A DNA stretch of 64,000 nucleotides, taken from assembly GCF_963921235.1 (NCBI RefSeq), contig NC_086097.1, positions 125,552,001-125,616,000 of the forward strand. The letters run 5' to 3'. A model generated the notes under the pieces. The model searched no databases. It was not told the origin of the DNA and worked only from the letters and a program-made list of their open reading frames with translations. A program made the position numbers and the translations under genes. Source of the stretch: Mobula hypostoma. Taxonomy: Eukaryota. This document shows positions 9,391 to 58,265 of the stretch, piece after piece (position 1 is the first letter of the stretch; each line of letters opens with the position of its first letter).

Positions 9391-10029
9391 TTGCCAGAGT
9401 CTTAGCGGAATCTAGTTGTTGATTCTCCAACCCTGGAAGAAAGATGGGTGAGTTGGGCCCATTTATGTCCCTCATGATCTTATGCATCCCTATAAGATCA
9501 CTCTTCATTCTCTTCCTCTCCAATGAATAAACTCCCAAAATGTACAACCTCTCCCCGAAACTCTATTCCTCAAGGCCCAGCAACATTCTCCAAATACCTT
9601 CCAGCTGAATGGCATCTTCCTTATTTAAAGATTAAAGATTAGCTTTATTTGTGCATGTGAACATGCACATTAAGACATACAGTGAAATGCGTCATTTTCA
9701 TCAAATCAAATCAAGGGGGATTGTGCTGGGTAGTCCATAAGGATCGCCACACTTCCAGCACCAATTTAGCATGCCCACAACTTATTAACCCTAATTCATA
9801 CGTGTTTGGAATGAGGGAGGAAACCAGACCACCTGGAAGAAACCATGAGGAGAACGTACAGGTAGTAGTGGGAACTGAACCTGGATCAGTAACTGCCGGC
9901 ATAGAAAACTATTGCGCGAAGCATAATACTACCATGTCGCCTAGTTTCCTGCCAGAAAGCCTCATGCCTCCAACAAACCTTACCTTGGACTCTTAAGAGA
10001 TCTATATTTTTCCTGCCTACTGCCACAAT

Positions 10030-10225
10030 CACTGTTCCCTCTAAGCTGCGCGGGTGTGTGGCCGCGCAGTAACTGAAATGCTCCTGCACACATAGCCTTT
10101 GTTGCCACTCAGCCGGAATTTTCTTTTATATAATGTTATCATAAAGTGCCACACAGTTTTCAGGCCATGTAAATATTTCCTGCTCAGAGCAATGGCTGAT
10201 GTAAAAAACGGTAGAAGGAACGTTG
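10030..10225. mobile_element. hAT-superfamily MITE (196 bp) with 8-bp TSD
   Basis: Imperfect TIRs CACTGTTCCCTCTA / TAGAAGGAACGTTG; perfect TSD GCCACAAT at 10022-10029 and 10226-10233. Confidence 0.8.
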
Positions 10226-11514
10226 GCCACAATGATCACTGCCCATGGACTTTCCATGGAGAATGAGGTGTTCAGAAGCAAGTGTGATTGCTGTTTTAGG
10301 ATACTCAAGCTGCATGTAAGGTGTTATCTGCCCACCTTTAACACCTACTGGAGATTACAAGAAACTTAGCTCTTAGATAACTAAAATACTTGTATAAGCC
10401 TATTCCAATGGACCATAGGACCATAAGACATTGGAGCAGAATTAAGCCACTTGGCTCATCAAGTCTGCTGCGCCATTCCATTCTGGCTGATTTTACTATA
10501 CCTTTCAACCCCATTCCACTGCTTTCTCCCTGTAACCTTTGATGCCTTTTTAAATCAAGAACCTATCAACCTCTGCTTTAAATATGCCCAATGACAAAAA
10601 CTGACAAACAACCAATGTGCAAAAGAAGACAATCTATGCAAACAAACAAACAAACAAGTAAATAAATAAAGCGATCAATCAATAAATTGGTCATTCAGTA
10701 AATCAATAACTCAATCATACTGAGAACATGAGCTGCAGAGTCCTTAAAAATGAGTCCAGAGGTTGTGGAACCAGTTCAGTAAGTTCAGGAGCCTGATGGC
10801 TGGATGGTAACAACTGCTCCTGAAAATGGTAGTAAGGTTCCTGTATCTCCTTCCTAATTATCTTGAGCGTGCATCTTTTGTTGAGATTGGCACTGACTCA
10901 GCTGTGCATCCGGTCAGAACCATGAGCCAGATTTTCCAGCAAATTTTTCGTCCCTTCCTAATTCTCACTACTAGTTGACTCTTTGCTACATTGCTTCATA
11001 ACATAATGTCACCTTCCATATGACAACTTCCAGCACTCTCTCTCTTAACAGCACTCCTGTTTCACAGTCTGTTCAGCAACGTAAGAGATAAAGAGAATTT
11101 CCTCCAGTTTAGGAGAAGGGAACCAGGAGTCTTTTTTTTAATTCAAGAAAGGGAGTAGGGATAACCTTGGGAATTACAGACCAGTGAGTCTTACTTAAGT
11201 GGTGAGCAAGTTATTGAAGAAGTTTCTTAGAGAGAGGATATGTGAGCATTTGGAGAAACAGTCTTATTAGACATAGTCAGCATGGTTTTGTGAGGGGCCT
11301 GACTGAATTCTTTGAGGATATGGCAGAGCAGTGGATGTGGTGTATATGTACTTTAGTAAGGCATTTGATAAGGTTCCACATGGCAGGCTCATTTAAGTTT
11401 GTTTAACCTCACTTCCAGTTCACAAGTGTAAAGAAGAACAAAATGATTGTTACTGTGGATCAGATGCAGCACAGAAAGAAACATAATAAGATAAAGAACA
11501 CAATAAATATAAAA

Positions 11515-12155
11515 AACACACACACAAAAAGCTGGAACTCAGCATGTCAGGCAGCATCCATGGAAGTCAGCAGTCGAGATTTGGGGCCGAGACCCTTCTT
11601 CAGGATGGGAAAGGAAGGGGAAAGACGCTAGAATAAAAAGGTGGGGGGAGAAGAACAACCAGTCCTCCTCTAGTGCCACGATGAGGTCATCCTTAGGGTG
11701 GAGGAACAAAACCCTACACTCTTTCTCGGTGGCTTCCAACCTAATGGCATAAATATCGATCTCCCCTCCCAGTAAAATAAAATTTCCCATCCCCTCTTCT
11801 TCTATTCGCCATTCTGGCCTCTTACCTCTTCTCACTTGTCTATCACTTCCCCTGGGTCCTCCTCCTTCCCTTTCTCCTATGGCCCACTCTCCTCTCCTGT
11901 CACATTTCTTCATCTCCAGCCTTTACCTTTCCCAACCACCTGGCTTCACCGATCACTCTCCAGCTAGCTTCCTTCCCCTACCCCTCCTTTTTATTCTGGG
12001 ATCTTCCCCCCTCGTTTCCAGTCCTGAAGAAGGGTCTTGGCACAAAACACTGACTGTTTATTCATTTCCATAGATGCTGCCTAACCTGCTGAATTCCTCC
12101 AGTATTTTGTGTGTGTGTTGCTTTGGATTTCCAGCATCTGCAGAATTTCTTGTGT
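11515..12155. mobile_element. Inverted pair of Penelope terminal repeats with two hammerhead motifs (11572-11607 minus, 12020-12055 plus)
   Basis: The left arm is the reverse complement of the right arm's 3' part; a GIY-YIG C-terminal remnant lies in the right arm. Confidence 0.75.
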
Positions 12156-12299
12156 TTATAAATTTAAATACATAAGATAGCTTATGTACATAGATTGATT
12201 ATATGTCCATAAAATGATGCTAGGCATAGGTGTATCAGTATAGAAGGTGACTCAGACAAGAAATGATGACATACTCGTGACATGAAAGTCAGGAGACAT

Positions 12300-13550
12300 G
12301 GAATGCAGGGAAAGCTAGTTGTGTGGATATAGAATTGGCTTGCTCATAGAAGGCAGAGGATGATAGCAGATGGAGTGTATTCTGCCTGGAGGTTGGTGAC
12401 CAGTGGTGTTCCACACGGTTCCGTTCAGGGACCCCTGCTCTTTGAAACTTTTGTAAATGACTTGGATAAGGAAGTGGAAAGGTGGGTTAATAAGTTTGCA
12501 GATGACATGAAGGTTGATGGTGTTTTGGATAGTGTATAAAGTTGTCATGGGTTACAACGGGACATTGACTGAGCTGAGAAGTGACAGATGGTGTACAACC
12601 GGAAAACTGTGAGGTGATTCACTTTGGAAGGTCGAACTTAAAGGCAGAATATAGGGTTAATGGCAGGATTCTTAGCAGCGTGGAGGAACAGGGGGATCCT
12701 GGTGTCCACATCCATAGATCCGTCAAAGTTGCAGTGCTAATTGATAAGGCTTTTAAGAAGATGTATGGTATGTTGGCCTTCATTAATCAAAGGATTGAGC
12801 TCAAGAGTCACAAGGTAATGTTACAGCTCTATAAAACTCTGGTTAGACCACACTTGGAATATTGCGTTCAGTTCTGGTTGCCTCAACAAAAAGGATGTAC
12901 AAACTTTAGAGAGTGTGCAGAGGAGATTTACCAGGATGATTAGGGTGCGTGGTATCATAGCGGTTAGTCAAGTGTGACACTATTACTGCCTGGGGCATTC
13001 TGGAATTTGAAGTATTGTGTGCACTTCTCATCACCTATCTGCAGGAAATATATCAATAAGATTGACAGGGGACAGAGAAAATTTGCAAGGATGTTGCCAG
13101 GACTTAAGGCCCTGAGTTATAGAGAAAGACTGAACAGCTTGGGACTTCATTCCCTGAAGTTCAGCAGAATAAGGAGAGACTTGATAGAGGCATACAAAAT
13201 TATGAGGGGTATAGAAAGGGTAAACACAAGCAGGCTTTTTCCACTGAGATTGGGTGGAACAATAACCAGATATCATGGGTTTATGGTGAAATGTGAGCTA
13301 TCTAAGGGGATCCTGGAGGGATCTTCTTCACTCAGAAAGTGGAGAGAGTGTGGAACAAGCTGCCAGCAAAAGTGGTAGATGAGTGTTTGATTGCAACATT
13401 TAAGAGATGTTTGGATAAGTACATAGATAGGTGTGGTGTGGAGGGCTGTGGTCCAGGCGCAGATCAATGGGACTAGGCAGAACAATCGTTCAGCATGGAC
13501 TCGATGAACCAAGGGCTTGTTTCTGTGCTGTAGTGCTCTGACTCCATGGT
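12300..13550 (+). mobile_element. Two decayed CR1 ORF2/3'-end fragments
   Basis: LYKTLVRPHLEYCVQFW, ERLNSLGLHSL..RRIRRDLIEAYKIMRG; CR1 tail gggcttgtttctgtgctgt. Confidence 0.85.
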
Positions 13551-13702
13551 TCTCTTGCCTCATAACTTGAAACAAAACACATGAATTATCTTGTACTTGG
13601 TGGTACTTTACCACATGGTCTAGAGGCCTCCAAACATTTTACACAGTCTTCTGTGATGCATTCGACACAAGCAGACACAATTTTGTCACCAAACATTCAA
13701 AA

Positions 13703-13784
13703 CAGGGGTTCCCAACCTGGTGTCCACGGATCCCTTGTTTAATGGTATTGGTCCATAGCATTAAAAAAAAGTTGTGAACCCCTG
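13703..13784. mobile_element. 82-bp hAT (Charlie-like) MITE
   Basis: TIRs CAGGGGTTCCCAAC / GTTGTGAACCCCTG; TSD ATTCAAAA / ATTCAAAG. Confidence 0.75.
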
Positions 13785-15261
13785 ATTCAAAGGAACTAGA
13801 TCAACAAGCCAGGTAACAAGCGCAGAAACGCAAAAAATGAACACTGAGTTTATGAAATGTTTTAAGGGCTTCTGCAACCAAGAGATAAGTCATTCTTTCA
13901 AACTTCAAAGTAAATTTATTATCAAAATATGATTATGTCACCATTTACTACCCTGAGATTCATTTTCTTGCAGGCATTCACAGTAGAACAAATTCAATAA
14001 AAAATAAATTACAAAAAAAAAGAAAAACCACACACAAAGACTGACAAGTAACCAGTGTGCAAAAGAAGCCAAAACTATGAAAAAAGAAATAAATAAATCA
14101 ATAGGTAGATAAATAAAGAAATAACACTGAGTACCTGAGTTAGTCATAAAGTTATAGAAAAGTACAGCACAGAAACAGGCCTTTCAGCCCATCTAGTATG
14201 TGCTGAACTATTTAAACCACCTACTCCAATCAACCTGCAACGGGACCATAGCACTCCATGCCTCTACCATCTATGTACCTATCCAAACTTCTCTTAAACA
14301 TTGAAATTGAGCTCCCACGTACTCCTTGCGCTGGCAGCTTGTTCCGCACTCTTACGGCCCTCTGAGTGAAGATGATTCCCTTAAATTTTACATCTTTCAC
14401 CCTTAACCTGTGACCTCTGGTTGTAGTCCCACCCTACCTCAGTGGAAAAAGCCTGCTTGCACCTACCCTCTCTATACCCCTCATAATTTTGTATACCTCT
14501 GTCAAATCTCCCCTCCATCTTCTATGTTCCAAGGAATAAATTCCTAAACTATTCAATCTTTTCTTATAACTCAGGTCTTCCAGACCCAGCAGTTGTGAGT
14601 TCTTTTGATATAAAACAGTGACTTCCACTGGAAACCGGAAACCTTACAGTCTGCTGAAGTAATTTACCTCTCACATTAAGTTGTCTTTACATCCGAAGTG
14701 ATTCCAATACATTTGACTCCAGCTACCTGTTCAAACCAGTGGCTGGACTGTTAATTATATCACGGCCCTTAAATTCACCATTGCACCTGCTGATTGACAA
14801 AGAGCAGCTCAACAATACTGCATTTTGTTTGCCTTTTCTCGAAATTTAAAGATCAGAGATTAATCCAGGTCCGTAGTTTACCTGCTGAATTACAACATAC
14901 CAAGGACAATAACAGCACTCACCATGGGTGTTCACACACAATGCAGGTATTTTGGAGAGTTGCCAAGGGCAGATTTACCATTGTTTTCTCTAAAATGAAA
15001 CTTCAGTCCAATTAACTTTGACTTCACCACAATGTACACTGAGTACCAAACACAGCACAAAATGTCTGCTCCACCATCTCTGCACTACAACTGTTTTATG
15101 ACACAAAGTGAGAATCCAAACAGCGATAAGACAAGACATACTTTTCATAATTATAGAGAGCAGACATTATGGTCCTAATATTCTGCTGTTGAAGACCTAC
15201 TTATTGTTCCATCAGCCCTCTCCCACTGTATAAACATAAAAATAATATCGGATGTATTGAA

Positions 15262-15672
15262 AGTAACACACACTAAGTGTTGCAAGTACTCAGCAAGCCA
15301 GGCAGGATCTTTGGAGGAGAATAAACAGTCAACATTTTGGGCTGAGACCCTTCATCCGGACTGGAAAGGAAGGGGGAAGAAGCCAGAATAAGAAGGTGGG
15401 GTTAGGAGGAGGAGGACAAATGGGCGGGTGATAGGTGAAATGAGGTAAGGCAGAAGATAGGTGGGTGGGAGAAGGAGATATGGTGAGAACTGAGAAAGGT
15501 AAAGGGCTGCAGAAGAAATCTGATAGTGGAGGAGAGTGGACCATGGGAGTAAGGGAAGGAGGGGCAAACCAGTGTGGAGTAACATGCAGATGAGAAGAGA
15601 AGGGGTAAAAGGGAAGCCAGAATGGGAAATGGAAATAAAGAGAATGAGGAAGGGGAGAAATTACCAGAAGTT
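15262..15672 (-). mobile_element. Penelope 3' terminal fragment with degraded hammerhead (15327-15362)
   Basis: Polypurine body and terminal motif shared with 5738-6140. Confidence 0.7.
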
Positions 15673-16713
15673 GTGTTAGTATACTTAACCATTTATTGAA
15701 CCTTTCTTTGTACATAGAATATTACAGACCCCTTGGCCCACAATTTTCACAGACAACAGATTTTGCAAAGAATGGTGTGAAAAGCAAAAATCATCCAGTG
15801 AGCAGCAGTTCTGTTGGTGAAAATGCCCTGTTAATGAGAGAGGTCAGAGGAGAATGGTCAGACTGGTTCAAACTGACAGGAAGGCAACTAACTCAAATAA
15901 TCACAAGGAGAGAAGAGCACAGTACAGGCTCTTCACCCATGATTTTGTGCCACCCTTTTAACCTACTCCAAGATCAATCTAATCCTTCCCTCCTGTATAA
16001 CAGCCCATTTTTTATTTATCCATCTGCTTTTCTAAGTTTCTTAAATGTCCCTAATGTTCTGTCTCTACCACCACTCCTGTAAGAGTGTTCCACATACCCT
16101 CCTCTCTTTGTATAAAAAACTTCCCTCTAACATCCCCCTTATACTTTCCTCCAATCACCTTAAAATTATACCCCCTTGCATTAGCCATTTCTGCTTTAGG
16201 AAAAAGTCTCTGGCTGTGCACTCGATCTATGCCTCTTATCATCTTGTAAACTCTATCAAGTCACCTCTCACTGCCCCCAACTCCAAAGAGCACAGCCCTA
16301 ACTCACTCAACCTATCCTCACAAAACATGCTCTCTAATCCATCCTGGTAAATCCTGAAAGATCAGACATGTGCTGATTTCCTTCACAAAGACGAAACTAA
16401 TGGGTCTTTATGATTGTTCTTCCACTGAGCAATGCGGTAGGCTACGTTGGCGCTGAAATGTGTGGCAACACCTGCGAGCTGCCCCCCAGCACACCCTCAG
16501 GTGTTTTGATTGTTAATGCAAAAAATGTATTTCCCTGTATGTGTCAATGTACATGTGATAAATAAACTCAAATCTGGGTTCTTAATGATTTGGTGCTTTC
16601 CCAGGCATTGAAACTAGTCTTTATTTAATTCCAGACTTATTTGATTAATGTTTTTTTAAATTTGCTATGAAAGGATTTGGATTCATTTCTTTGGATTATG
16701 ATCTCCGTGATAC

Positions 16714-17660
16714 CATCATTCAAAGAAGTATCAGAGAAAAAAACTTGGGACAATTTTCTTCAGCATCCGGGGGTGAATTTTTTTTCTTCTCCGTTTTGAT
16801 CCATCTAAACCAAACGGTTAACTTTTGTTTATCTTCTATTGATCCTTAAGTCAATAAATTTTTGCCTTTCAAAGTCGAAGTACAATTTATTGTCAAAGTA
16901 TCCATATACCTTGAGATTCATTTTCTTGTAGGCATTTGCAGGGAAAAAAAACAACAGAATTCGCGAGAAATTATACAAAAACAAATACTGACAAACAACC
17001 AATGTGCAAAAGACGACAAATTGTGCAAATAGAAACAATATTGAGAACATGAGTTGTAGAGTCTAAATTCAGATTCATTAGCCTATTGCCCCAACCTCAG
17101 AGATCCCAGAAGACAGCTACTAAGCTGCACAATAATTCTTTTGTGTAAAGGGAGAAAACGTTATCTGCATCTTATATAATCTTCTTCCTGAATCAGATCA
17201 TTTACCTCATCAAGCTCACAAATTAATATCTTTGGTACTATTGATGCTCTACATATTTTTATGGACATTTAATGTTTGTTACATGATTAACTTTTCAATA
17301 ACACAATTGGAAATTATTACTCTTTTCTGCCATCTTTCAACCAAGGTTAAAGAAAATCACTGGAGCAGTTTGACTGTAAGTTCAAACTACACCATCAGGG
17401 CAACAATCAAAGCACCTCGCAAAGAAAACATAGTTTATCCGACATAATTCTGTTTTCATTAAACACAGACTTGTCTGTGGATCAGTGTCAGCTGCAGATT
17501 CAGGAACATTATGCGGTAACGAGTCAGAGATGAGTTGATTATAAAGCAAGTGTTTAACACTGTCCGACAGAAAAAAGTTAGGCACAGCAACAAGGGAATA
17601 GAAGTATTGCTCAAGATCCATGACTGTGTGGGACAAATAGAAGTTACTCCTGAAATCTAT
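16714..17660 (-). pseudogene. Decayed segments resembling the SNX13 PX C-terminus and PXC domain
   Basis: 17470-17660 encodes DLEQYFYSLVAVPNFFLSDSVKHLLYNQL, ungapped against recalled SNX13 DLNAYLQLLLAPEMMKASPALAHYVYDFL. 17160-17247 encodes LDEVNDLIQEEDYIR vs MDEVFDLKERNQWLR, then a stop. A weaker segment lies at 16714-16805. Confidence 0.55.
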
Positions 17661-18339
17661 GTGAATCTTTGGTTTATTGCACATTGCACTTTGGCTGTTG
17701 TGTTTTTTTTAACTTAAGCAAGTATCTGTTTCATAATTTACACCAAACATAGAACACAGAACACTACAGCATGGTACAGGCTCTTCAGCCCACAATGTTG
17801 TGCAGACACTTTAACCTACTCTAGGATCAATCTAACTCTTCCTTCATACATAGCCCTCCATTTTTCTATCATCCATGTGCCTATCTAAGAGTTTCCTAAG
17901 TGCCCCTAATATATCTGCTTCTACCACTATCACTATCATGGCAGGGTGTTTTATGCACTCACCACTCTCAGAGTAAAGAGCTTACTTTTGACATCTCCCC
18001 TATCCTCATTAGATGTTCAAGATTCAAGAATGTTTATGAGTGTAAAGGAGATTTATGATTGTTACTCTGTATCCGATGCAGCAGAAGAAACATCACAATA
18101 AGCATAAAGAACAAAATAAATTCAATAAATGTAAATATATAAGCAATCCTATAAAACACAATGTTCATGCTCTCTAGTTCAGGCAGCATCCTGGTAAATC
18201 TCTGTACCCACTCTAAAGCTTTCACATCCTTCTGATAATAAGATGACCAGAACTGAACACAATATTCCAACTGTGGTCTAACCAAGGTACAGGAGCCTTA
18301 GGCCCCACAAAACCAGGTTCAGAAACAGTTAATACCTTT

Positions 18340-18830
18340 ATGAAGAACGCATGGCAGCATCTTTACTTTCTCAGAAGTTTGCAAAGATTTGGCATGTCGT
18401 CTAAAACAGTGACACACTTTTGGATATGTCAGTATGTGGTGGAGAGCATATTGCTGGTTGCATCATGAAATGGGATGGAAACACCAATACCTTTGAATAG
18501 AAAATCCTACAATACAGCCCAGTCCATCAGGGGTACAACCATTTAGCACATCTACAACGAGTGCTGTCACAGGAAAGCAGTATTGATCATCAAGGATCCC
18601 CACCGTCCAGGACATGCTCTCATCTCACTGCTGCCATCATAAGAAGGTACAGACAGCTCAAGACCCACATCACCAGAATCAGAAACAGTTATTATCCCTC
18701 AATCATCAGGCTCCTGAACCAAAGGGGATAACTTCACTTGCCCCATGATGATCTGTTCCCAGCACCTATAGACTCACTTTAAAGGACTCTTCATCTCATG
18801 TTCTTGATAATTATTGCTTATTCATGTACG
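18340..18830 (+). mobile_element. Rex1/Babar 3' fragment
   Basis: Degenerate ...GCI..W.GN...RKAV.IIKDPHRPGHAL.SLLPS coding remnant; same family as 20850-21330. Confidence 0.65.
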
Positions 18831-19039
18831 TTTGTATTTATTTATTTATTATTATGTAGCCTCAAGGCACCAATGTATTTTTATCTGTATTAAATTGTCA
18901 ATTTAAATTTCTAAACACTAGTAATTACACTCAAATAACCTATGAGCACATTAGAAAAAGCCTTTTGATTCTATGTATCTACATCTAAAGGCTATTTTAC
19001 TAGGTAACTTGTACAGTGGCTTGTTCATTCAAACGTCTA

Positions 19040-19235
19040 ATCAACCAATCATGTGGCAGCAACACAATGCACAAAAGCAAGCAGACATGATGAAGAGGTT
19101 CAATTGTTGTTAAGATCAAACATCAGAATGGAGAAGAAATATGATCTAAGTGACTTCGACCATGAAATAACTGTTGGTGCCAGATGGGGTGGTTTGAGTA
19201 TCTCAAAAACTGCTGATCTGGGAATTTCACACACG
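19040..19235 (+). mobile_element. Tc1-like fragment (transposase N-terminus)
   Basis: MEKKYDLSDFDHEITVGARWGGLSISKTADL; homologous to 37736-38307. Confidence 0.7.
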
Positions 19236-19529
19236 GGCAGTGGGAATTGAACACTTATAGGTGATCACTAGTGCTGAAAATTTCTTGCGTGAACTCCTAC
19301 CATGCTATTGCCTTTGGTGCATATTTTGTGATTGACAGCAAAGTTTGAAAATGCTAACATTTTGAAACTAAAATAGAAAGTTCAAGAAAACACTGGTCAG
19401 GTTGATGGAGGGAAAAGGCAAATTTTGGTCTTTGAGAGGACCCATCATCAGAATATGGTGGGTTTATAAATTCACTGCTTTGCCCTGAATTTGCCAAGTA
19501 AATGGATATTGATGATACATTCAAGAGAA

Positions 19530-19714
19530 GCATTTTGACCTGGACACTGTACACACTTATTGACTCTTTTTCAAACACTGAGTGATTTTCATCCAGGGGG
19601 CAGTCTGGATCACAGTTTAAGTCTTGTTGGATTCTGATACTTTTGCATCCAAAAATTCTTCAGAAGTCAAGAACGAGGCATAAAACTTATTGCTTACAAT
19701 AACTTTAGTGAATG
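19530..19714 (-). pseudogene. Frameshifted exon-like segment: RGS C-terminal helix then PX N-terminal strand (SNX13-like)
   Basis: Very long polypyrimidine tract + TAG acceptor at 19715; encodes FTKVIVSNKFYASFLTSEEF (cf. RGS ...FYPSF), then after a 1-nt shift ...EKESISVYSVQ. Confidence 0.45.
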
Positions 19715-20225
19715 CTACAAGAGGAAAGCAGAACAAGAAAAAGAAGTGTTGAGAAAACAAAGAGAAGACAAGACTAAAAAGTAGTCATGCTCCTCTCTTA
19801 CTCAGAAAATAGGTAACAAAATTCCATTGATAACAATTAACCAATAAAACAACCAGATTCAAGTAGCGTGACACCTGCTCTTGAAAACTAAGAAGGTTTT
19901 AGAAAAATAAAGAAACAGCTGTACCTTAATTACTGGAAAATTCACTGAACGATTACATGTTTATAGGTGATTATATAAAAACACAAGCAAGTGTAGGCAA
20001 GTTAAACTACAAGAAAATTCTACACCGCAATCCAACAGGTTTCATAAGAAAGATGGGACTTCCAGCAGTATAGTGACACAACCATATTCCTTACATTCAC
20101 TTCTGTCGCATAAAACTTTGCAAGAGAAATACGGCTGTGGAATATTCAAGATGCTGTCACTAAGTACAAACATAGTCTTGCAGGCACAAGCCAATAAATT
20201 AGGCTTTAATTTTAGTTTTTCCTAC

Positions 20226-20338
20226 CTGGATTTATCTTTAATTATTTCTTCTTCAGAGCTGGAGTCTGGGATTTCTCTTCACTGTAGGAGACAGAAAGAG
20301 CAATTCTTTGATGAGGCTGAATTTGGAGCGTAGTGTGC
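20226..20338 (-). pseudogene. Exon-like segment, RGS domain middle (SNX13-like), with stop/frameshift
   Basis: Acceptor ttcctgcag|G and donor CCAG|gtagga; encodes (G)TLRSKFSLIKELLFLSPTVKRNPRL vs recalled SNX13 GLLRAAAVGIYEQYLSEKASPRV. Confidence 0.5.
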
Positions 20339-20394
20339 CTGCAGGAAAGATAAGCTTGAATGAATACAGAGAATATTTACAAGTTTAGTCCAAC

Positions 20395-20650
20395 TGGTGT
20401 TCAATTCCCACTGCTGTCTGTAAGGAGTTTGTATGTTCTGTCTATGAACACGTGGCTTTCCTCTGGACCCTCTGGTTTCCTCCGACATTCCAAAAACATA
20501 GGGTTCGGGTTAGTGAGTTGTGGGCATGCAATGTTGTCCCCCAAAGTGTGATGACACTTGTGGACAGTCCAACACAATCCTCGCTGATTTGATTTGATGC
20601 TAAACGTCACATTTCACTGAATGTTTCGATGTACATATGATAAATCTAAT
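20395..20650 (+). mobile_element. V-SINE (HE1-like) copy; others at ~9640-9940(-), 27040-27300(-), 31793-32040(+), 36625-36910(+), 38785-39085(-), 42865-43405(-, two), 48368-48655(-), 59890-60040(-)
   Basis: tRNA B-box gttcaattccc followed by V-core-like gtggctttcctctgg...ggtttcctcc.acattccaaa.ac. Confidence 0.75.
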
Positions 20651-21519
20651 CTTAAAAAGACCTTATCCTCTATATAGAGCTCCCAGTGACCTCACAAGTT
20701 TCCTTCCACAACTGAAAGACACGTAGTTTGGCAGGCTTTATAAATTACCCACTAGTGCGTAGATGAGTGATCAAATCTCCGGCTGATGAAGAGAATCCTA
20801 TTCTCCAGACAATGAGATTAACATCATTTTAATATAGATAGAGACAGCCTGAAAATGTTGGGCCCCATCACTGAGTACATCTACAAAGAAAGCTGGCACA
20901 AGAAAGCAGCATCTATCATTGAGGACCCCCGCCATCCATGCCATGCTTTCTTCTTGCTACTCTCATTGGGAAGGAAGTACAGGAGCCTTAATCCCACATC
21001 ACCAGGTTCAGGAACGGTTGTTACCCTTCAACCATCAGGCTCCTGAACGAGCATGGATAACTTCACTCACCTCAACTCTGAACTGATTCTTCAGCCTATT
21101 AACTCACTTTCAAGAACTCTACAACTCATGCTCTCAGCATTCGTTCTTTCTTTCTTTCTTTCTTTATTTGCACAGTTTGTTTTCGTTTGCACATTGGTTG
21201 TCAGACTTTGAGTGTAGTTTTTCACTGATTCTATTATCTCTCTGTTCTACTGTGAATGCCTGCAAGAAAATGAATCGCAGAGTAGTATATGTTGACAAAA
21301 ACGTACATACTTTAATAATAAATTCATTTTGAACATTTCTGATGATGTTGCAAGACCAGCAGCAGGAGATGCTACATTACAATACAGCTACGTTACAAAA
21401 TTGCTGGATGTAGGGACAAACATGAGCTACAAGGATTCAAGTTTAGCAAAGTTTGGATGGCGCCGAACTACAGCCTTTATTGAGGTCATGGCTCAGACTT
21501 TATTTTTTGTTGTTTTTAG

Positions 21520-32969: not shown

Positions 32970-33107
32970 TTTGCAAGGGGGATGGGACCCGGAGCGTTAG
33001 AGCAGTGGAAGAAGTGCATGGAGTAAAGCCAGATCTAATATATAGAGAGGCTTTGAGGAAAGAGAAGCAGAATAAAGGATGTAAAGGTAGCAAGGTAGAA
33101 GGGCTAA

Positions 33108-42405: not shown

Positions 42406-42462
42406 AAAGCAACAACAAACAAATCTTTGCTCTAAATACTGTGAAGGTTTTCAAAATTATGT

Positions 42463-45939: not shown

Positions 45940-46195
45940 TACCCCAGGCCGCGTCTGTGCTCAACTGAACATAAAAGCACCATTTGCCCCGTTTCGAAGA
46001 TCAGCAAGTCGTTTGTCCCTTGATGCCCTGGCCAGTAATTGCCTCTTGTTTAATATTACAGGGAAAAATACAGTATCTTCTTATTGTCATATTGATGTTT
46101 GTGGGATCTTGTTCTGCTCAGATCACCTCAACAAGAACAACTATATTTCAGAATTATTCCTCTAGCTCTTAAGTGATTTGGGATGTCCTGCAAAG
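45940..46195 (+). mobile_element. Ancient DeuSINE (SacSINE1-like) remnant
   Basis: Degenerate Deu-domain blocks ttcgaaga..agca, ccctggcca.taatt, tgtttgtgggatcttg, tttgggatgtcctg (from memory of the family). Confidence 0.55.
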
Positions 46196-49100
46196 AACAT
46201 TTCAGTATTTAAGAAAAGTTTGAATAAGTAGACAGATGGAGGAAGTTATGGAGGGCTATGGTCCAGGTGCAGGTCGATGGAACTAGGCAGAATATTAGTT
46301 CAGCATGGACTGGATAGGCCAAAGGTCCTGTGTCTGTGGTTTAGTGCTCTATATTTCTAGGGAATGAAGGACAGAGAGAACTTTGGGAGGGAGAAGGAAA
46401 AAAAGGAAAGATTAAGGGTGAAAGGTAAAATGTTTAAGAGGAACATGAGAATGGAACTTCGTCACTCAGAGGTGGTGAGAGCCTGTTACGAGCTACCTGC
46501 AGAAGTAATAGGTGCAGGTTCCATTTCAGCAGTTAAGAGAAGTTAGGATAAGTACATGTATGGGAGGGAATGGAGGGCTATGGACCATGAGTGGGTTGAG
46601 GGCCCTAGGCAGAATAATAGTTTGGTACAGACTAGATGGGCTGAAGGGCCTGTTTCTGTGCTGTGGTGTTTCATAACTCTTTGAATAAGTTCAGTGCTAT
46701 ATAACTGGAAAATCACCTCATAAGAGAAACATGTGAATGCTTACAAAGCTCATATATGGACTAATCAAGCAACCATCTTCCACACAGTCCTCTGTTGAAT
46801 CCGGTTTAGATGGGAATCTGATTTGAACCGTACACTTCCTACAGGTGGAGGGATGCTAGAATGATCAATTCCAAATTGGACTGAGCTGAGTATGTAGCAC
46901 TTCTTGTTTTGACAGCTACTTAATGCAATTTCTTTTTAATGGTAATCTTGGCTAAGGATACAATGGATAACATGACACAGATATAACAATGATAAATTTG
47001 ATATTCAGTGGACTTAAAATAACCTCTCTGAAGAGAATGAAACAGGAGTAAAAATATATATATATTTGGGACATGAAACGCTTCAATCCAGTACCCCTGG
47101 GACCTGACTGGTGCTAACCACAAAAAAATCCAAATAACAGAGATTGTCCACAATCAATATCCTCTGAACAGAAGAATTGTTCTTTTTAAGTAAAAACACT
47201 CTCCAGGTCATGTAAGAGGTTCAAGATTTGTTCATAACCCCAAGTCAGAAATGCTGTTGACTGAGATTGCAAAGGTTACCTTGGTAGGCAAATTGAGTAC
47301 AGATATTTGCTAATTTAAGATCTTAGCTAGATTTGTACAGTGGACTTAAAACATGCCAAACCACAGGAGTTCTGCAGTTCAAACCACTTCTCAGCCCGGC
47401 TCTGAATCCTGACAATGTTCCACTGTAACCCTCAACAACCTTCTGCGCTCTCCACAACCTCACCAACCTTCATATCATTCCAACATCCCAACTCCTGCAT
47501 TCGGTACTGACTGATGAAGGCCAGAGCATCAAAAGCATTCGTCTCTTCCCTGATTACCTGCAGCACCATCTTGCTTCACCCAGTCCCTGTCTTGATCTCA
47601 CAAAGTTGTGCAGTACCACTCCTCACTTTATTTATTTTATTTACTTTACACTGTATTGTCGCCAAACAATTGATACTAGAGCGTACAATCATCACAGCGA
47701 TATTTGATTCTGCACTTTGCGCTCCCTGGATTACAAATCGATAGTAAATATTAAAAATTTAAATTATGAATCATAAATAGAAAAATAGAAAAGGGAAAGT
47801 AAGGCACTGCAAAAAAAACCGAGAGGAAGGTCAGGATATTTGGAGGGTACGGCCCAGATTCGGGTCATGGTCCTTTCAGCAGTCTTATCACAGTTGGAAA
47901 GAAGCTGTTCCCAAATCTGGCCGTACGAGTCTTCAAGCTCCTGAGCTTTCTCCCAGAGGGAAGAAGGACGAAAAGTGTGTACTAGTACTAGTTTGAAGAT
48001 TAACATCTTTAAGTTGAAGTGAACACTCTACAACTGTTGTGCCTTTCCATAAAACGTTGCAAAAACCTAATGATAGGGTGTATCAGGTGTTGAGTGCTCA
48101 TACTAGTCGCCCACTAATCCTGGGGCATCACCACCTATTCCCATTAAAATCCAGGCTGACTGAGTGATTAAGGACTAGCTACCGGAAGAGGGAGAGGGGA
48201 AGAAGAGCCCTCAGCAACCAATCATTCCCTACAATATTAATCTTTTGTCTCTTGACAGTCACCAAGTAATCTGCTGGATTTTCACCACTGGCTCTTTAAG
48301 TTCTTAGATCACAGCTGATAAATATTTATTGCTGTAAAATTTATTGGAAATTACTCAGAAAATAGTAAAGATTTATTTGTCACATGTACATCGAAACTTA
48401 CAGTGAGATGTGTTGTTTGCATCAAATCGAAACAGTGAGGATTGTGTTGGGGCAGCCCGCAAGTGTCACCACACTTCAGCACCAACATTGCATGCCCACA
48501 GCTCAAAGCCCTAACCCGTACATCTTTGGAATGTGGGAGCAGTCGGAGGAATCTCACACAGGCATGAGGGGAATGCTCAAACAGTGGTAGGAATAAACCC
48601 CCTAATCTTACAGCTGGCACTGTAACAGCATTACGCTCACTGCTATGCTACCATACCACTTCATCAAGTACACCTCTCTGATAAAAGACAAAACTGCCAA
48701 CAGTTAGGCTTGCTAAGATCATTAAAACCATTAAGTATACATTCATTCAGTCCTTTTTTCCCTCTTATCAGTAGAAGTAACGTAGGTTTACCATATGTAG
48801 ATACCAGTTCATTACACTAAGCTTAAGCCTATATGTTTAATCTTCATTAGTAGCAACATTTATTATAAGTGCAAGTGTAATTTCACAACTCAGCACAGAT
48901 TATTCAGGATGTTTCATTTCCAAATTTGTTCCAACCACAGACCGTAAGAGCAAAAGACAATGGAGCAGAATTAGGCCATTTGGCCCATTGAGTCTGCTCT
49001 GCCATTCCACCATGGCTGATTTACTTTCCCTCTCAATCCCATTCTCCTGCTTTCTCCCTGTAACCTTGGACACCCTAACTAATCACAAACCTATCAACCT

Positions 49101-50844: not shown

Positions 50845-52661
50845 CATAGAACATAGATCACAGAATAGTACAGCACAGTACAGGCCCTTCGGCCCACGAT
50901 ATTATGCCGACCCTTAAACCCTGCCTCCCATATAACCCCCCACCTTAAATTCCTCCATATACCTGTTTAGTAGTCTCTTAAATTTCACTAATGTATCTGC
51001 CTCCACCATTGACTCAGGCAGTGCATTCCACGCACCAACCACTCTCTGAGTAAAAAACCTTCCTCGAATACCCCCTTGAACTTCCCACCCCTTACCTTAA
51101 AGCCATGTTCTCTTGTATTGAGCAGTGGTGCCCTGGGGAAGAAGCGCTGGCTGTCCACTCTATCTGTTCCTCTTAATATCTTGCATACTTCTACCATGTC
51201 TCCTCTCATCCTCCTTCTCTCCAAAGAGTAAAGCCCTACCTCCCTTAATCTCTGATCATAATGCATAATCTCTAAACCAGGTAGCATCCTGGTAAATCTC
51301 CTCTGTACCCTTTCCTTCCTATAGTGAGGTGACCAGAACTGACACAGTACTCCAAGTGTGGTCTAACCAGAGTTTTATAGAGCTGCATCATTACCTCGCG
51401 ATTCTTAAACTCTATCCCTCAACTTATGAAAGCTAACACCCCATAAGCTTTCTTAACTACCCTATCTACCTGTGAGGCAACTTTCAGGGATCTGTGGACA
51501 TGTACCCCGAGATCCCTCTGCTCCTCCACACTACCAAGTATCCTGCCATTTACTTTGTACTCTGCCTTGGAGTTTGTCCTTCCAAAGTGTACCACCTCAC
51601 ACTTCTCCGGGTTGAACTCCATCTGCCACTTCTCAGCCCACTTCTGCATCCTATCAATATCTCTCTGCAATCTTCAACAATCCTCTACACTCTCCACAAC
51701 ACCACCAACCTTTGTGTCGTCTGCAAACTTGTCAACCCACCCTTCTACCCCTACATCCAGGTCGTTAATAAAAATCACGAAAAGGTCTCAGAACCGACCC
51801 TTGTGGGACACCACTAGTCACAATCCTCCAATCCGAATGTACTCCCTCCATCACGACCCTCTGCCTTCTGCAGTCAAGCCAATTCTGAATCCACCTGGCC
51901 AAACTTCCCTGGATACCATGCCTTTTGACGTTCTGAATAAGCCTACCGTATGGAACCTTGTCAAATGCCTTACTAAAACCCATGTAGATCACATCCACTG
52001 CACTACCCTCATCTATGTGCCTGGTCACCTCCTCAAAGAACTCTGTCAGGTTTGTTAGACACGATCTGCCCTTCACAAAGCCATGCTGACTGTCCCTGAT
52101 CAGACCACGATTTTCTAAATGCCCATAGATCCTATCTCTAAGAATCTTTTCCAACAGCTTTCCCACCACAGACGTAAGGCTCACTGGTCTATAATTACCC
52201 GGTCTATCCCTACTACCTTTTTTGAACAAGGGGACAACATTCGCCTCCCTCCAATCCTTGGGTACCATTCCTGTGGACAACAAGGACGTGAAAATCCTAG
52301 CCAGAGGCTCAGCAATCTCTTCCCTCACCTCGTGGAGCAGCCTGGGGAATATTCCGTCAGACCCCGGGGACTTATCTGTCCTAATGTATTTTAACAACTC
52401 CAACATTTCCTCTCCCTTAATATCAACATGCTCCAGAACATCAACCTCACTCATATTGTCCTCACCATCATCAAGTTCCCTCTCATTGGTGAATACTGAA
52501 GAGAAGTATTCATTCAGGACCTCGCTCACTTCCACAGCCTCCAGGCACATCTTTCCACCTTTATCTCTAATTAATCCTATCTTCACTCCTGTCATTCTTT
52601 TATTCTTCACATAATTGAAGAATGCCTTGGGGTTTTCCTTTACCCTACTCGCCAAGGCCTT
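50845..52661 (-). mobile_element. Young 5'-truncated CR1 (sister of 32133-35954) nested in BEL element
   Basis: RT peptide almost identical to the 34189-35892 ORF; same 3' tail. Confidence 0.95.
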
Positions 52662-53984
52662 ACAATGGTCCACTAACGTTGTTCTGGTTGCACAGGGGCC
52701 ACCAATAACACTGCACGTCATTTGCAGCAGCTCCCATGCCTTAGACACATTCACCCCTATCAACAGCTCAATATCTGAATTACTTTCTGACCAATGAATT
52801 ATGCTTCAGGTGAGACCATACCTGAAGATTTCTCTAACAAGGAATGATCCCATAGACAGGCACACTTTCCTAAGTATAGATGTTAGCCAGTTGACAATGG
52901 TTTCAGTAGGTAAACCAGCCACTTCTAAACCTGAAATGGCGTAGCTACACATGAGTTTCTCTTGACCCCCTGGTGCGTAAAAGAACGTGTACTCTTTTTC
53001 CTGCCAGGTTGAGCTTGTTCGTGAAGCTCTCTGTGCAGAACACTGTGGTACTTCCTTGATCTAGGAAAGCATAAGTAACCATTGTCTTGTTACTGTCCTT
53101 GGACTTCACCTGACTTGAATTATAGGAAATTTACAATCATGATCACCAGCTCCATAAGGCTATTAGATACCAGGACGGTACTCAATCCTGTGTTTGTCTC
53201 ATTCATGGCTTGTTTCGAATCTGCACCCTTTTCATCAGTTCTGGGCTCAGTTTCAGCTTCAGTTTGAACAGTAGCCACGGTAGTGGCAAAGCTGCTTCCT
53301 TGAGCTTTAGAAAAAATTTGTGATCCAGTTTTGCTCACACCTTATTTACTGCTGGCGATGTAGCATTGTACTTCTTCCCAAACACTGGATGTGTAGCAAT
53401 CTTTACTTGTCTTTCAATAAAATCAACAATATCAGTGAAACTGATCTTATAATTGTGCTTTTCTTGCAGCTTACAGACTACCGGTCTCCATTTTTCCCTA
53501 AATTTATCGGGCAATTTATTTATGACAATCCTCATATGAGCAACCACGTCCAACCCAGCATGTCCTGCCTGTGTTCCACGGGGTTGCAATAGCTTCTAAG
53601 AAAAAGACTGTAGTCTTGAAGAGCTTTCATGTCTTCTGATTTCTTCTGTGACCAAGAAAGAGCCTTTTCCATGTAGGCTACAGCAATTTTGTGCTCATCA
53701 TCAAAATGATCTTGGGGTAAAACCTGGGCTTTTAGATATCCTTACTTCAAGCCTGCCTGCTGGCAACTTTTGACAAGTTCTCTAGGGCAACTTCCAGTAA
53801 ACTGTTCAAGAAAACAGAGACAGTGACTATAATCATCAGTCTTGCCTTCAATGTGTTCTTGAAAGGCTTCATAAATAAATTATACTGCAGTGGATCACCA
53901 CTGCAGATTTGAATCTCTCTTTTAGGCAGAGATGCAATGCCTTGTTCTTATATCACTATGCTTGCTATTTCCTTTCACATCCTT

Positions 53985-54380
53985 ATTAGATTAGATTAGA
54001 TTCAACTTTATTGTTATTGCGCTGAGTACAGATACAAAGCCAATGAAATGCAATTAGCATCTGACCAGAAATGCAAAAAGAATAGTATTATTTACAAAAT
54101 AACTGCGAATAAAAAGTAAGTGCTACAGCATACAAGTATAAAAGTACTGAGACAGTCCAATATGGGTGCAATACTGCTTGGCGCTGTGATGTGAGGTTCA
54201 GCAGGGTCACAGCCTCAGGGAAGAAGCTCTTCCTGTGCCTGCTGGTGTGGGAGCGGAGGCTCCTGTAGTGCCTACCGGATGGGAGGAGAGTAAAAATCCA
54301 CGGTTAGGGTGAGATGCATCCCTGATAATGCTTTTCGCCCTGCCCAGGCAGCGTTTACGGTTGATGTTCACAATGGTGGG
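53985..54380 (-). mobile_element. Rex1-like 3' fragment with (AATCT)n tail nested in BEL gag
   Basis: attagattagattagattc tail; remnant HPNRG..LLPSGRHYRS..SFFPEAV. Confidence 0.7.
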
Positions 54381-55995
54381 TCTTCAGCACAGCATTTAGA
54401 CCTTTATTATCTGAAACACGAGTGTCATCATTCCATAAATCAATGTTCTCAAAAGCACCTTGTGCTATTGGATATGGTATAGGTTCAGGTGTAGGCTGAG
54501 CGCGAACACCCTTGGGTAGTTCATTTAGTGGCTCATAGACATTTGTTCCTCAATTGTATCGCATTGACATTGAGTATGTTGGATTTTCTCTGTTCCGTGT
54601 CAACATAGGAACCCTCAACATAGAAGTGCCTGGCCGGAGCATGTTTAGCACTCACAGCACTTGAAGCTCTTAGCATTTTAACTCTGGCCATCTTGGCTGC
54701 AATTTCTTCCTGCAACTTAAGCTTCTCCATCTTCCTCCTAAGTTGCTCTTCCATCTGTTATGGGTTTCTCCGAAGCTGTTCTGCCTATTCTTCTAAGGCC
54801 TGTTTATCCCTCAATATTTGTTGTCTTGTGTATAACTCACCTAAATCAATCTTCATTCTAATGCGTGCCGATGAGGTATCAGATGCACGGGTCACTCTGC
54901 TAGTGGCTGCAGAAAGTGCTGCATGCATGTTAGACATGCTGTCTCCAGCATGAACCTCATCTTGTAACTCATCACCTTTATACAGAGTCACATCCTCTTC
55001 TTTGGCTTTGTAAATATTTGCATTTCCTCCAACTAACTGGCCTTCTACATTGTATGTTTGTTTAATTTCTCTCTTAGTCTTCGTTCAAGGTCACTGCTTC
55101 CAGCTGGACTCATGTTGTTTCCCAAGCACGGAAACACGGCAAAACAACGGCAAATTCATTTCAGCTTTTCAGCAATGGAAGCAATGTAACTGAACCAAGT
55201 GAGCAAACTCTTCAGGCAAGCACACAATGCAGCTTTTCAGTCCAACCTAGTTGGGCATGGCTGACCATTCAAAACCCAAACCTAAACACACAGCATGAAT
55301 CAACAAAAGGTCACTACTTGCCACAGGCTGCTCCTGGAGGCGGTGTTCCTAATTTCTCAAACACGTCCGATTACTGAGTGCTTGTTTGGTATGATTATCA
55401 AAAACTTCTGCTGACAGAATTTCAGCAAATCTAAACCAAAACCAAAACCAAAACAAAACAGTTGCTGCTAGCCTGCAACCGCTGCACAATTGCTATATCT
55501 GCATGATGTGCCCCCAGCTCCAATGAAATGATTGATCCCAGAGTTATTCGATCCTTTATTAGCAATTAGCAAACATACAATCTTGAAGCAACGAAATTTA
55601 AACATAACCAAATGTCAGATAAACAATATTCAGTGATACTAAGCGTCATCTCAACGGTCAGCAAAAGATACGACCTCTGCCAGTTTCAAGCTACAAACTG
55701 CCATAAAATAAGCAAGAACACATAACTTATTCCTTTTGCTTTTACTACACTCTCCCCCACTCATGTGATTAGTTACCATAAACCCCCTAACACGGAATAC
55801 AAAGCAGATGGAGAACAGGTACATGGCTCCTATAGTTACTTTCTCAGCATTTAATGAATGCACTAGCTTTCAAAGAATTCACAGTAAGCATGTAATGCTA
55901 AGCATTCATATATAACATCAGAGTAATTTTTAAGTAATAGATGTCAATTTTGTTTTATAAACATAAGAGATTCTGCAGCTGCTAGAAGTCCAGAA

Positions 55996-56032: not shown

Positions 56033-56194
56033 CTGGAGGAACTCAACTGGTCAGGCAGCATCTATGGAGAGGAATAAAGAGTCGATATTCCAGCCCGACT
56101 GTTTATTCCCCTCCTTAGATGGTAAACTAATTTTGCAATGGTTTGTGAAGGAACCAAACGCATTGCATACACTGTTTCATTTGGTCAAAAGCAC

Positions 56195-56400
56195 TTTAGA
56201 AAACCGCTTCATGCTTTAGATCATCAAAAATGATGGGTAGGATGCAATTTAACTTCCACCTGCTGGTAAGAGAAGAGCATGTTTATCAAACACACCCTCT
56301 CAAGACATCCCTAGACATTTCAATGAAGAATTTCTATAGTCAGTTCACTGTTGTAAGCTAATGTCTTAATCATTTGCTTCTCAGAAAAGTTAATTAAGAC
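56195..56400 (-). pseudogene. Frameshifted segment resembling the SNX13 PXA domain N-terminal half
   Basis: Pieces LINFSEKQ, KFFIEMSRDVL, IIFDDLKHEAVF vs recalled SNX13 VIQFSLRD, SFLLEIRQTL, RIVDDFGTHLRVF; first-to-last motif span 196 nt vs ~65 aa expected. Confidence 0.45.
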
Positions 56401-57329
56401 CAAGATTGCTTATTCTCCTTCTTCAGTACACGAGTGTAAACGAGAACAAAATGATCGTTACTCTAGATCCAATGCAGCATTAAAAATACAAATAAGATAA
56501 AGAAGACAATAAAAGCACCATATAAATAAAAGTAATCCTATAAAGCACGATTTACAAGTAACCATTATTTACAGAGACTGATAGAATGTGCATTAAGTGA
56601 GGCAGGTGATGTGTATGTAGTGTTGGGCATTATGGTGTGGTGGATTAAAGACTGGAGGTGTTGATCAGCCTGATAGCTTGTGGGTCTGAGTCTAGTACTC
56701 CTAGCCTGGATTCTGTGCAACCTCTTCCCTGATGGGTGGATGAGCAGGGTGTGTGGGACTTCTCATGATATTGTTGGCATTCTTCCAGCACCTTTCTGTA
56801 CATACATCGTAAACAAACTGTTATCCATTATGGACAGTCAGGCACACCCTCTCCATGACCTACTGAACAGCTCCACTGTCACAAGGATCATCACAGAAAA
56901 TCTTTCCTACCAAATGCAACAGTTCATCTCTGTGCGACAGGAGAGCACACATCACAGTACAATAGTCTCTGTTTTATTATTTCCTACTTTATTATTGCAC
57001 AGTATTGCACAATAGTAAATTATTATTGTGGTCAGTATTATTCTGTACTTAATTATTAGTTATTAGTACTATATTATTATTGCTAAGTGTGTTTTTAAAT
57101 GTTGCTGCTGTAATGAAATAATTTCCCACTCAGGATTAATGTAGTACTTATTATTATTATCATTATGGGTAAGCTGGTGCTGGTGATGCATTGGGCAGTT
57201 TTAACTACCCACGGTGGAACTCTCCTGCCTGCCACAGTGCAGCTTACATACCCACACAGTGATGCAGCATGTTAGGATGGTCTCAACTACTCATCTGTAG
57301 AAAGGATCAGCATTAGCCATGAAACCAGG

Positions 57330-57545
57330 CTTTGCGCACTTGCTCTTCTTGACTATATGCAGTGGAATTATTTATGTCCACTTGAGAGAACAGGTCTGAC
57401 CTCAGGTTATCAGTTTCCTGCAATGTGGCACATCTTCAATAGTGTACCAGAATGCCACTATTCTCGGATTTTTGTACTTGAGAAGCTGGAGAGGGACACG
57501 AACCCACAGCATAACTGAGAGGCAAGTGCTACAGCCGTCGAAGGA
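57330..57545 (-). mobile_element. Ancient DeuSINE (SacSINE1-like) remnant, 5' part
   Basis: Minus strand: gcacttgcctctcagt..gggttcgtgtccc.ctccag...tctcaagtggacataa...aagaagagca. Confidence 0.5.
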
Positions 57546-58265
57546 GTACAGTGCGCAGCAGTGCCAAAATATCAAAGTCTGAAGGGCAAATGGAAAAACA
57601 GGGCTATGCTGGGATTCAGGCATAAATTAATACAAATTTGTTTATGATGGAGTTCTGGCTTCTTTCCAGTCCTAATGAAGGGTCTCATCCTGTAGCGTTG
57701 ACTCTCCTTTCCATAGATACTGCCTGACCCGCTGACCCCTTCAGCATTTTGCGTGTGTGTTGCTCCCGATTTCCAACATCTGCATATACTCTTGTTTTTC
57801 AAAAAAAAACATCTTTAATTTAAAAATCACTCTGATGTTAAATATGAATGCTTAGCATCACATAATTACTTTGTCTGGTCTTTGGAAGAAGTTAAGAGCA
57901 TTTGTTAAATATGGGGACAGCAACTTCGATGCAGAAGTTACAACACATGCCCTTGCGTTTAAAGTTAACAGGACGTTCGGCTTGGTAAATGCTGCACAGG
58001 TGACGACTATAAAGTGTAGGAACCTGGAAAACACATTACTATTTGCATCAATTCTAAAAGGAAATGATCAGATTGTATTTGGAGTATAACGTATAACATT
58101 GGCATCGTTATCTCAAATGAAAGATACATTTGACTTGGAAAGCAAACAGGAAGTGACTATATGATTGATTCCTGGGCGTCCTACATGGAGAGAAGGAGGG
58201 GCTTCTATTTCCTGGTATTAAAAAAATGAGCGGTGAATTAATTTTAACATATATAAAAACATCTA

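Follow-up and report, generated by a model that had tools for sequence, protein, structure and literature searches.

The minus strand of the window (the whole 64,000-nt stretch analysed) probably holds, as far as its sequence can tell, a long-dead and divergent SNX-RGS paralogue whose remains now belong to a spliced, non-coding RNA. The sequence-only reading had proposed a pseudogenised SNX13-like paralogue at positions 9984–58023: its RGS followed by PXC, its status as a non-orthologue, the true nature of its breaks and one apparently spliced exon held up, while its PXA, its PX end and the whole-gene signal did not. All peptides and splice dinucleotides quoted there were present at their coordinates, and the gene was indeed invisible in the ORF track, with its pieces lying outside every minus-strand ORF of at least 110 aa. 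The likeness to SNX13 at the protein level is borderline; among a query set consisting of SNX13 only, the locus is likely closest to SNX13. It has the marks of a pseudogene, with real disabling changes and no sign of coding constraint, and is likely no longer able to encode a protein.

A profile of 952 positions was made from 123 real SNX13 proteins, the chondrichthyan ones being P0054, P0064, P0066, P0091, P0092 and P0096, and used with an aligner written for the study that tolerates frameshifts and introns. Self-similar repeats (44% of the window) were masked in every aligner run on the window, and seven single-copy transposon stretches were masked as well in the chain, RGS/PXC, four-domain, piece-ranking, ungapped-segment and simulation runs. 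An intron cost of -14 proved too lenient in this aligner, the plus strand outscoring the minus; across nine settings, the minus strand was above all three controls in five. Single pieces, from pre-selected regions, were placed by free choice among the 952 profile positions against 150 decoys, and splice sites were ranked with an approximate splice matrix. The window is without a neighbouring gene, and the unique parts of the locus are single-copy in organisms B, C and H.

RGS was the only domain to exceed the decoys alone (equalled by 0/40 and 1/40, and by 5/1043). An unguided RGS-only spliced alignment joined the donor at 42272 with 20282–20228 and 19715–19650 at 22.7 bits, a score that 5/1043 decoy profiles and 9/776 shuffled DNAs equalled. 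This path meets three strong splice sites, of which one has RNA support. The RGS start and end proposed earlier were both placed in order. The candidate RGS exon 1 (42273–42385, minus), with a strong donor after 42273 and a frameshift near 42350, was placed unguided at profile positions 382–391 (4/150 decoys equal) and has 5/12 identities to Hypanus SNX13, dropping to -9 bits beyond the frameshift. The candidate RGS end (19650–19714, minus) begins at the 19714 acceptor and meets an in-frame stop about 30 nt on; it was placed unguided at 496–514 (1/150 decoys equal), ranked fourth among the ungapped segments of the two strands and gave an hhalign P of 0.0076. Short repeat-like matches share a 115-nt bin with this piece. 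The RGS-middle exon alone was placed outside RGS (146/150 decoys equal), and its part 20282–20228 took profile positions 457–474 only in the spliced alignment. The RGS domain is weakly recognisable, with about 19 residues absent between its middle and end and Pfam blank.

With 21.8 bits, the candidate PXC start (17170–17247, minus; an in-frame stop follows) outscored every other ungapped segment of the window, whichever the strand, and was placed at profile positions 771–791, with 1/150 decoys equal, an hhalign P of 0.028 and 7/26 identities to Hypanus SNX13. The PXC domain consists of this one 26-residue piece, which alone and window-wide was equalled by 4/40 and 9/40 decoys; the PXC signal is significant only jointly with RGS. 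RGS followed by downstream PXC reached 43.8 bits, equalled by 0, 0 and 2 of 1043 decoys (within 5 kb, within 20 kb and at any distance) and by 1/776 and 2/776 shuffles, and on the minus strand was the best of 48 combinations of domain pair, strand and orientation. This statistic was picked post hoc after about ten others, with a rough correction giving p of about 0.03–0.05. A decayed gene for some other RGS-type protein, with PX and PXC likeness arising by chance, would also leave RGS beating the decoys alone, PXC equalled as often as it was, and PX and PXA at background; it is improbable, given that the window's best segment is the PXC piece, found 2.4 kb downstream as the domain order requires, and that a PX strand-like piece was placed right after the RGS end. 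A possible PXC continuation (13611–13696, minus; profile 805–814, 10.3 bits, rank 3/44716), weak and new, was included in the computed domain chain.

Three pieces (42.4, 19.7 and 17.2 kb) were placed unguided in the correct order, and all four domains scored higher on the minus than on the plus strand. Among the four-domain chains, the real profile and the minus strand together accounted for all of the top 12 of 96, the correct order PXA-RGS-PX-PXC ranking only seventh of 96. In whole-profile alignments the score was equalled by decoys in 8, 1, 1 and 3 of 30 cases and by block permutations in 11, 17, 17 and 8 of 30, and the reversed profile scored above the real one in all four; decoys equalled the core model in 7, 7, 19 and 9 of 40, and controls equalled the chains in 4, 6, 1 and 3 of 30 and in 15, 66 and 255 of 431. 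Collinearity of the whole set, earlier taken as the strong signal, was therefore not clearly above chance: in the comparison with decoys and shuffles that was to decide on the gene, RGS plus PXC exceeded the controls, while whole-gene collinearity mostly did not. When genes were simulated to decay to at most 14% identity, they obtained 18–28 bits in the whole-gene test, comparable to the 22.7 of the real locus, and so the whole-gene and collinearity tests are short of power at this level of decay.

These results bear directly on a chance mosaic, in which the real splice sites belong to a non-coding spliced RNA and the likeness is made of short matches picked from 35 kb of unique AT-rich DNA. 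Such a mosaic would explain the blank library searches, the mostly non-significant whole-gene tests, the dense background segments of 16–20 bits on both strands, the out-of-order pieces equally convincing by eye (22560, 21492, 48295) and RNA junction letters at odds with the exon chain that was proposed. It is nonetheless rather unlikely in view of RGS then PXC being equalled by at most 2/1043 decoys and at most 2/776 shuffles, of an RGS path found unguided on strong splice sites and of the minus-strand excess in all four domains.

The PXA pieces at 56195–56400 and 47130–47330 were placed elsewhere at background scores (68/150 and 13/150 decoys equal), the 56.3 kb piece falling out of order at PXC positions. 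The proposed 5' and PXA pieces at 56195–58023 (minus) are unsupported (59/150 and 68/150 decoys equal): the exon at 58023 reached PXA over 7 residues only and was not placed at the profile N-terminus (TM anchor); hydrophobic background matches are common. Two alternative PXA-like pieces within 46079–48703 (minus), 48703–48653 for the PXA start and 46108–46079 for its end, scored at background level (17.2 and 13.5 bits), each ranking first for its own window; they are correctly ordered and lie 5' of the RGS start, and the out-of-order rivals at 22560, 21492 and 48295 are as good. The best PXA score was at background (22/40 and 26/40 decoys equal), with conflicting candidates at 48.7, 46.1 and 22.6 kb. 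The PXA look-alike at 22560 and a strong PX-core look-alike at 21492 were dropped as out of order. A 29-nt candidate exon at 9984–10012 (minus) has a top-ranked donor and unsupported homology (35/150 decoys equal).

PX motif-like pieces occurred in order at 19572, 19398 and 17624. A possible PX N-terminal half (19381–19572, minus), absent from the earlier proposal, is weak and contains two frameshifts: the 19572 piece was placed unguided at 582–594, just past the RGS end (116/150 decoys equal), and the 19398 piece ranked 3/46156 for its window, the middle piece between them ranking 1136. This region is single-copy DNA in organisms B, C and H, and was blank in Pfam, PDB, the atlas and hhalign. 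The candidate PX end (17520–17623, minus), downstream of an acceptor at 17623, is likewise weak (3.9 bits, rank 41/40814, 4/29 identities to Hypanus SNX13) and, in unguided placement, went elsewhere at a background score (65/150 decoys equal). Organisms C and H carry 2 extra bases at 17560, so the long open frame of the window there is not common to them. From the PX end to the PXC start there are 410 nt against about 128 profile positions, and the two lie in one frame once the two indels listed for organism H are counted. The PX domain, assessed with an SNX13-specific profile, was equalled by 13/40 and 10/40 decoys.

The 113-nt exon with the candidate RGS middle (20226–20338, minus) has stops in all three frames and strong splice sites, its acceptor 20338 ranking 3/2317 among unmasked AGs and the donor after 20226 ranking 10/2158 among GTs. 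Rank 2/2158 is shared by the donors after 42273 and 9984, and the acceptors 19714 and 58023 stand at the 98th and 96th percentile of unmasked AGs. In X20, a dataset guessed to be of RNA type, record 16 (573 nt) covers 20225–20339 only, with 0 differences and foreign letters on either side, so that this predicted exon appears as a discrete, apparently spliced block. The contig extends one intron base past the exon on each side, which does not agree with its being joined directly to the exon at 42273 or at 19714. This contig, exactly on 20338–20226, and the weak PX-like motifs after the RGS end are new relative to the sequence-only reading. X20 depth was zero at 17115–17689, 19300–19529 and 20105–20219, which does not speak for silence. 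In the bin of 19617–19714 it was 1.32, as 28 nt at depth 5.4 would give, so that the contig may also cover part of this stretch, though the junction letter misfits. A 417-nt exon from 20033 was ruled out, the AG being absent. The introns lie near, and are not identical to, the invertebrate SNX13 ones at profile positions 458 and 493.

The pieces carry stops and frameshifts, and the breaks checked are common to related species. They are not assembly errors: the 113-nt exon is gapless in the RNA-type contig and in organisms B and C, and the stop after the PXC piece is kept in organisms C and H. Frame-shifting indels separate the species, and in the PXC piece all five of the differences listed for organism H change the residue; among the differences listed, the three relatives gave no sign of coding constraint. 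True SNX13 shows 93% identity in the Hypanus–Leucoraja comparison and 86% against Callorhinchus, while the locus pieces have 14–42% identity to Hypanus SNX13. Because of this gap to the 93% between batoids, and with its open frame lost, the locus is no orthologue of SNX13. The domain order fits the family, as would also be the case for the native SNX13 (or SNX14/19/25) of the ray, lost not long ago or disrupted by errors of assembly; the low identity to SNX13, the shared breaks and the blank results of searches able to find a near-identical protein make this very hard to believe.

No single piece was recognised by any library search. Pfam searches with 22 + 16 + 5 pieces gave only three unrelated sub-threshold matches; for two pieces searched against PDB, one had no match and the other two unrelated ones; the atlas returned nothing usable (bacterial clusters at no more than 0.85). 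Of two protein searches, one used the PX-end frame (23 candidates) and the other a two-frame alignment of 19366–19715 (323 candidates); none of the candidates scored in either, and both are weak negatives. phmmer with 19545–20375 against 1.84 billion representatives and Rfam each gave 0 matches, and hmmsearch --max and tblastn stayed at background. A PX motif scan of viral contigs found 2 loci, which were not used. That this is an ancient paralogue we infer; the protein searches found no intact copy of the gene.

An old duplication may have given rise to the gene, which then would have drifted far from SNX13. Its function would have been lost before the split from organism H (6.5–8.6% DNA difference), with later retrotransposon insertions presumably pushing the exons apart. 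What the remnant still yields is likely only a spliced, non-coding RNA at low level, in which at least one of the old exons is reused. The ancestral protein may have served as a tether anchored in the ER and bearing a PXA/PXC lipid pocket, a role proposed for the family (PMC8864675). A more far-reaching version is doubtful: a fifth jawed-vertebrate SNX-RGS gene, a fast SNX13 paralogue with compact RGS-PX-PXC, dead in these rays and intact but unannotated in some shark, skate or chimaera. No fifth vertebrate member was found in the literature searched. If real, a fifth lineage would alter the vertebrate history of the family even in fossil form, as a lost duplicate missed by annotation, and an intact copy elsewhere would offer a natural divergent PXA/PXC lipid pocket. 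For now, the locus is a dead gene barely within reach of detection and offers a modest lead rather than a new mechanism.

Transcribed unitary pseudogenes of lost duplicates are disabled, intron-bearing and single-copy, with residual splicing. The locus shares these properties, the splicing apparently included, although no intact orthologue is known to anchor it. The SNX-RGS family has four human members of low mutual similarity (PMC8864675, PMC8280035). SNX14, SNX19, SNX25, Mdm1 and Snazarus, which entered the analysis only as fragments within PDB alignments, have the same expected domain order (PMC8864675, PMC8280035), while SNX19 is described as lacking the RGS, unlike the candidate locus (PMC8280035). 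Compared to SNX13, the locus has stops and frameshifts, an unsupported TM and PXA, an apparently much shorter RGS-PX linker and apparently fewer PX-PXC introns, the invertebrate and fish SNX13 having introns after profile positions 696 and 763. What it has in common with SNX13 is the correct succession, along a single strand, of the pieces placed at RGS start, RGS end and PXC start.

The locus on the minus strand consists of broken, single-copy, apparently part-spliced and unconstrained DNA with a borderline likeness to the RGS and PXC domains of SNX13 in the right order. The SNX13 queries came from a motif scan of metagenomes giving 97 loci, chiefly animal SNX13, one of which led to 670 relatives, the best 120 of these being SNX13-like wherever named. 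The query profile held 123 SNX13-type proteins; SNX14, SNX19 and SNX25 stood outside all profile tests, which limits each of them. Neither hmmsearch --max nor tblastn with this profile gave a match above background in the window, and a spliced, frameshift-tolerant aligner was therefore purpose-written; as a control, it recovered the SNX13 exons of 16 loci at 196–944 bits.

In whole-profile alignments the real score was equalled by decoys in 8/30, 1/30, 1/30 and 3/30 and by block permutations in 11/30, 17/30, 17/30 and 8/30, while the reversed profile scored above the real one in 4/4. Decoys were as good in the core-domain model (7/40, 7/40, 19/40, 9/40), as were controls for chains of ungapped segments (4/30, 6/30, 1/30, 3/30; in a second test 15/431, 66/431, 255/431). 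The correct four-domain order, PXA-RGS-PX-PXC, ranked only 7th of 96, and PXA alone and PX alone were both at background. Out-of-order look-alikes at 22560, 21492 and 48295 reached 15–20 bits, so such matches arise easily. A PXA-start look-alike at 22516–22601 (minus strand; 19.6 bits, 6/24 identities to Hypanus SNX13), located between RGS exons and 41 nt behind a strong acceptor, is either chance or a sign of a more compact or rearranged gene; a PX-core look-alike at 21433–21492 (minus strand; 15.9 bits), out of order and between repeats, is probably chance. Simulated decay to about 16% identity left at least 35 bits in 6 of 8 genes and decay to 14% or less left 18–28 bits, resembling the real 22.7; the negative whole-gene tests therefore rule out an SNX13 copy in moderate decay, whereas a paralogue in an advanced state of decay would be compatible with them.

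The RGS profile alone was matched by decoys in 0/40 and 1/40, the path of the first run taking in a stretch of transposon. Once transposon frames were masked, the unguided path ran through the 42272 donor, 20282–20228 and 19715–19650 at 22.7 bits, equalled by 5/1043 decoys and 9/776 shuffled DNAs. Adding the best downstream PXC match raised the score to 43.8 bits, equalled by 0/1043, 0/1043 and 2/1043 decoys and by 1/776 and 2/776 shuffles, and RGS then PXC ranked top among the 48 combinations of domain pair, strand and orientation. As this statistic was picked after about ten others, it should be read as p near 0.03–0.05. Among ungapped segments of the window the PXC piece (17170–17247) ranked 1st and the RGS end (19650–19714) 4th, and three of the pieces, mapped unguided, fell in the right profile order. 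Immediately after the RGS end come weak PX-like motifs at 19572, about 19480 and 19398; a weak possible PXC continuation lies at 13696.

The peptides and splice sites quoted in the sequence-only reading were all found in the window, as were the disabling changes, with stops or frameshifts within or beside every piece; its PXA pieces (56195–56400, 47130–47330) and PX end (17520–17623) found no support, being wrongly placed on the profile and scoring at background. By an approximate matrix over the unmasked minus strand, acceptor 20338 ranked 3rd of 2317; among 2158 GTs, the donors after 42273 and 9984 shared 2nd place and that after 20226 was 10th. Single pieces were not recognized in Pfam, PDB, a protein atlas, sequence representatives or word-indexed protein searches, which gave blank or unrelated sub-threshold matches. 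The same reading had suggested a possible ancient, pseudogenised paralogue; RGS then PXC and the non-orthologue status support it in part, and the whole-gene order tests were mostly not significant. Its doubt about a true SNX13 orthologue was well placed: Hypanus SNX13 shares 93% identity with that of Leucoraja, 86% with that of Callorhinchus and 80% with a bat protein, whereas the window pieces have 5/12, 3/12, 4/22, 2/13, 4/29 and 7/26 identities to it, which leaves orthology very improbable. Invertebrate introns after profile positions 458 and 493 lie close to two candidate acceptors, a few bases off, with no exact match, and intron number varies widely among invertebrate SNX13 loci (L005, L013, L055, L041, L058); introns recur after 696, 763, 811, 834 and 872, the last four of them in the fish-like locus L042.

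Relatives and RNA were compared over 17000–20420, using all contigs of 4 runs out of the 24 listed. Words of 13500–20400 were present at 65–69% in runs of organism A, 41–42% in B and 10–15% in other organisms. In B, C and H the unique DNA of 17000–20420 occurs as a single copy; it differs from the window by 11/745 in B, 23/594, 20/456 and 12/191 in C, and 50/766 and 67/779 in H. Neither B nor C (the latter from 20228) has a gap across the 113-nt exon, so an assembly error does not account for its broken frame. Two extra bases occur at 17560 in C and H and one base fewer at 17256 in H; the stop after the PXC piece persists in C and H once the listed differences are applied (36 difference rows, 213 more being left out). 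Among the listed differences, 5 fall in H's PXC piece of 26 codons and each of them replaces an amino acid; no coding constraint was seen in the compared stretch.

A 573-nt contig of run X20, presumed RNA, matches 20225–20339 with 0 differences and has different letters on either side; the match extends one base beyond the predicted 113-nt exon at both ends. This is a signature of splicing and no proof of homology, and a chance mosaic of a spliced non-coding RNA with accidental SNX13 likeness is a possible, less likely explanation, set against the RGS-PXC score. If the match is fully extended, its neighbours are neither the 42273 nor the 19714 exon, because the former would match two bases and the latter none. 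A 23-nt candidate exon at 21741–21763 (minus strand; donor 5th of 2158) could, judging by its last letters, be what precedes the 113-nt exon in the contig.

The window is animal DNA (G+C 43%, self-similar repeats 44%) with numerous reverse-transcriptase-like frames, which we take to be CR1, RTE and gypsy. A near-complete element at 32134–35955 (plus strand), presumably CR1-like, has two fragments 92–93% alike to it at 50851–52661 and 60177–61290 (minus strand). Two decayed LTR-retrotransposon-like stretches, 22987–25927 (plus) and 52662–55467 (minus), carry what we assume to be gag, protease and RT-like words; against the RGS profile, the latter gives spurious coiled-coil matches. An open frame at 1–1548 (plus; 515 codons), single-copy within the window and extending past its edge, presumably resembles the 3' portion of a non-LTR retrotransposon ORF. 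Two candidate RGS exons also have open frames on the opposite strand, at 19971–20333 (plus; 120 codons) and 42045–42497 (plus; 150 codons).

We lean, at slightly better than even, towards a long-dead, decayed SNX13-type paralogue with one exon reused by a non-coding transcript; a decayed gene with RGS only is improbable. An SNX13-type gene would have duplicated long ago and the copy diverged; its disabling would precede the divergence from organism H, and retrotransposons would have pulled it apart, one old exon still being used by a non-coding transcript. No fifth vertebrate SNX-RGS member was found in the literature searched, with most subscription papers outside its scope, and a paper on yeast phylogeny (PMC13400895) has no bearing on the locus. 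PMC8280035 and PMC8864675 give four human SNX-RGS members, SNX19 being without RGS, and PMC8864675 proposes from structure predictions a lipid pocket formed by PXA and PXC. The ancestral protein of the putative paralogue would likewise have been a tether anchored in the ER, with such a pocket formed by its PXA and PXC, and the locus is probably, if unproven, a fossil member of this known family.
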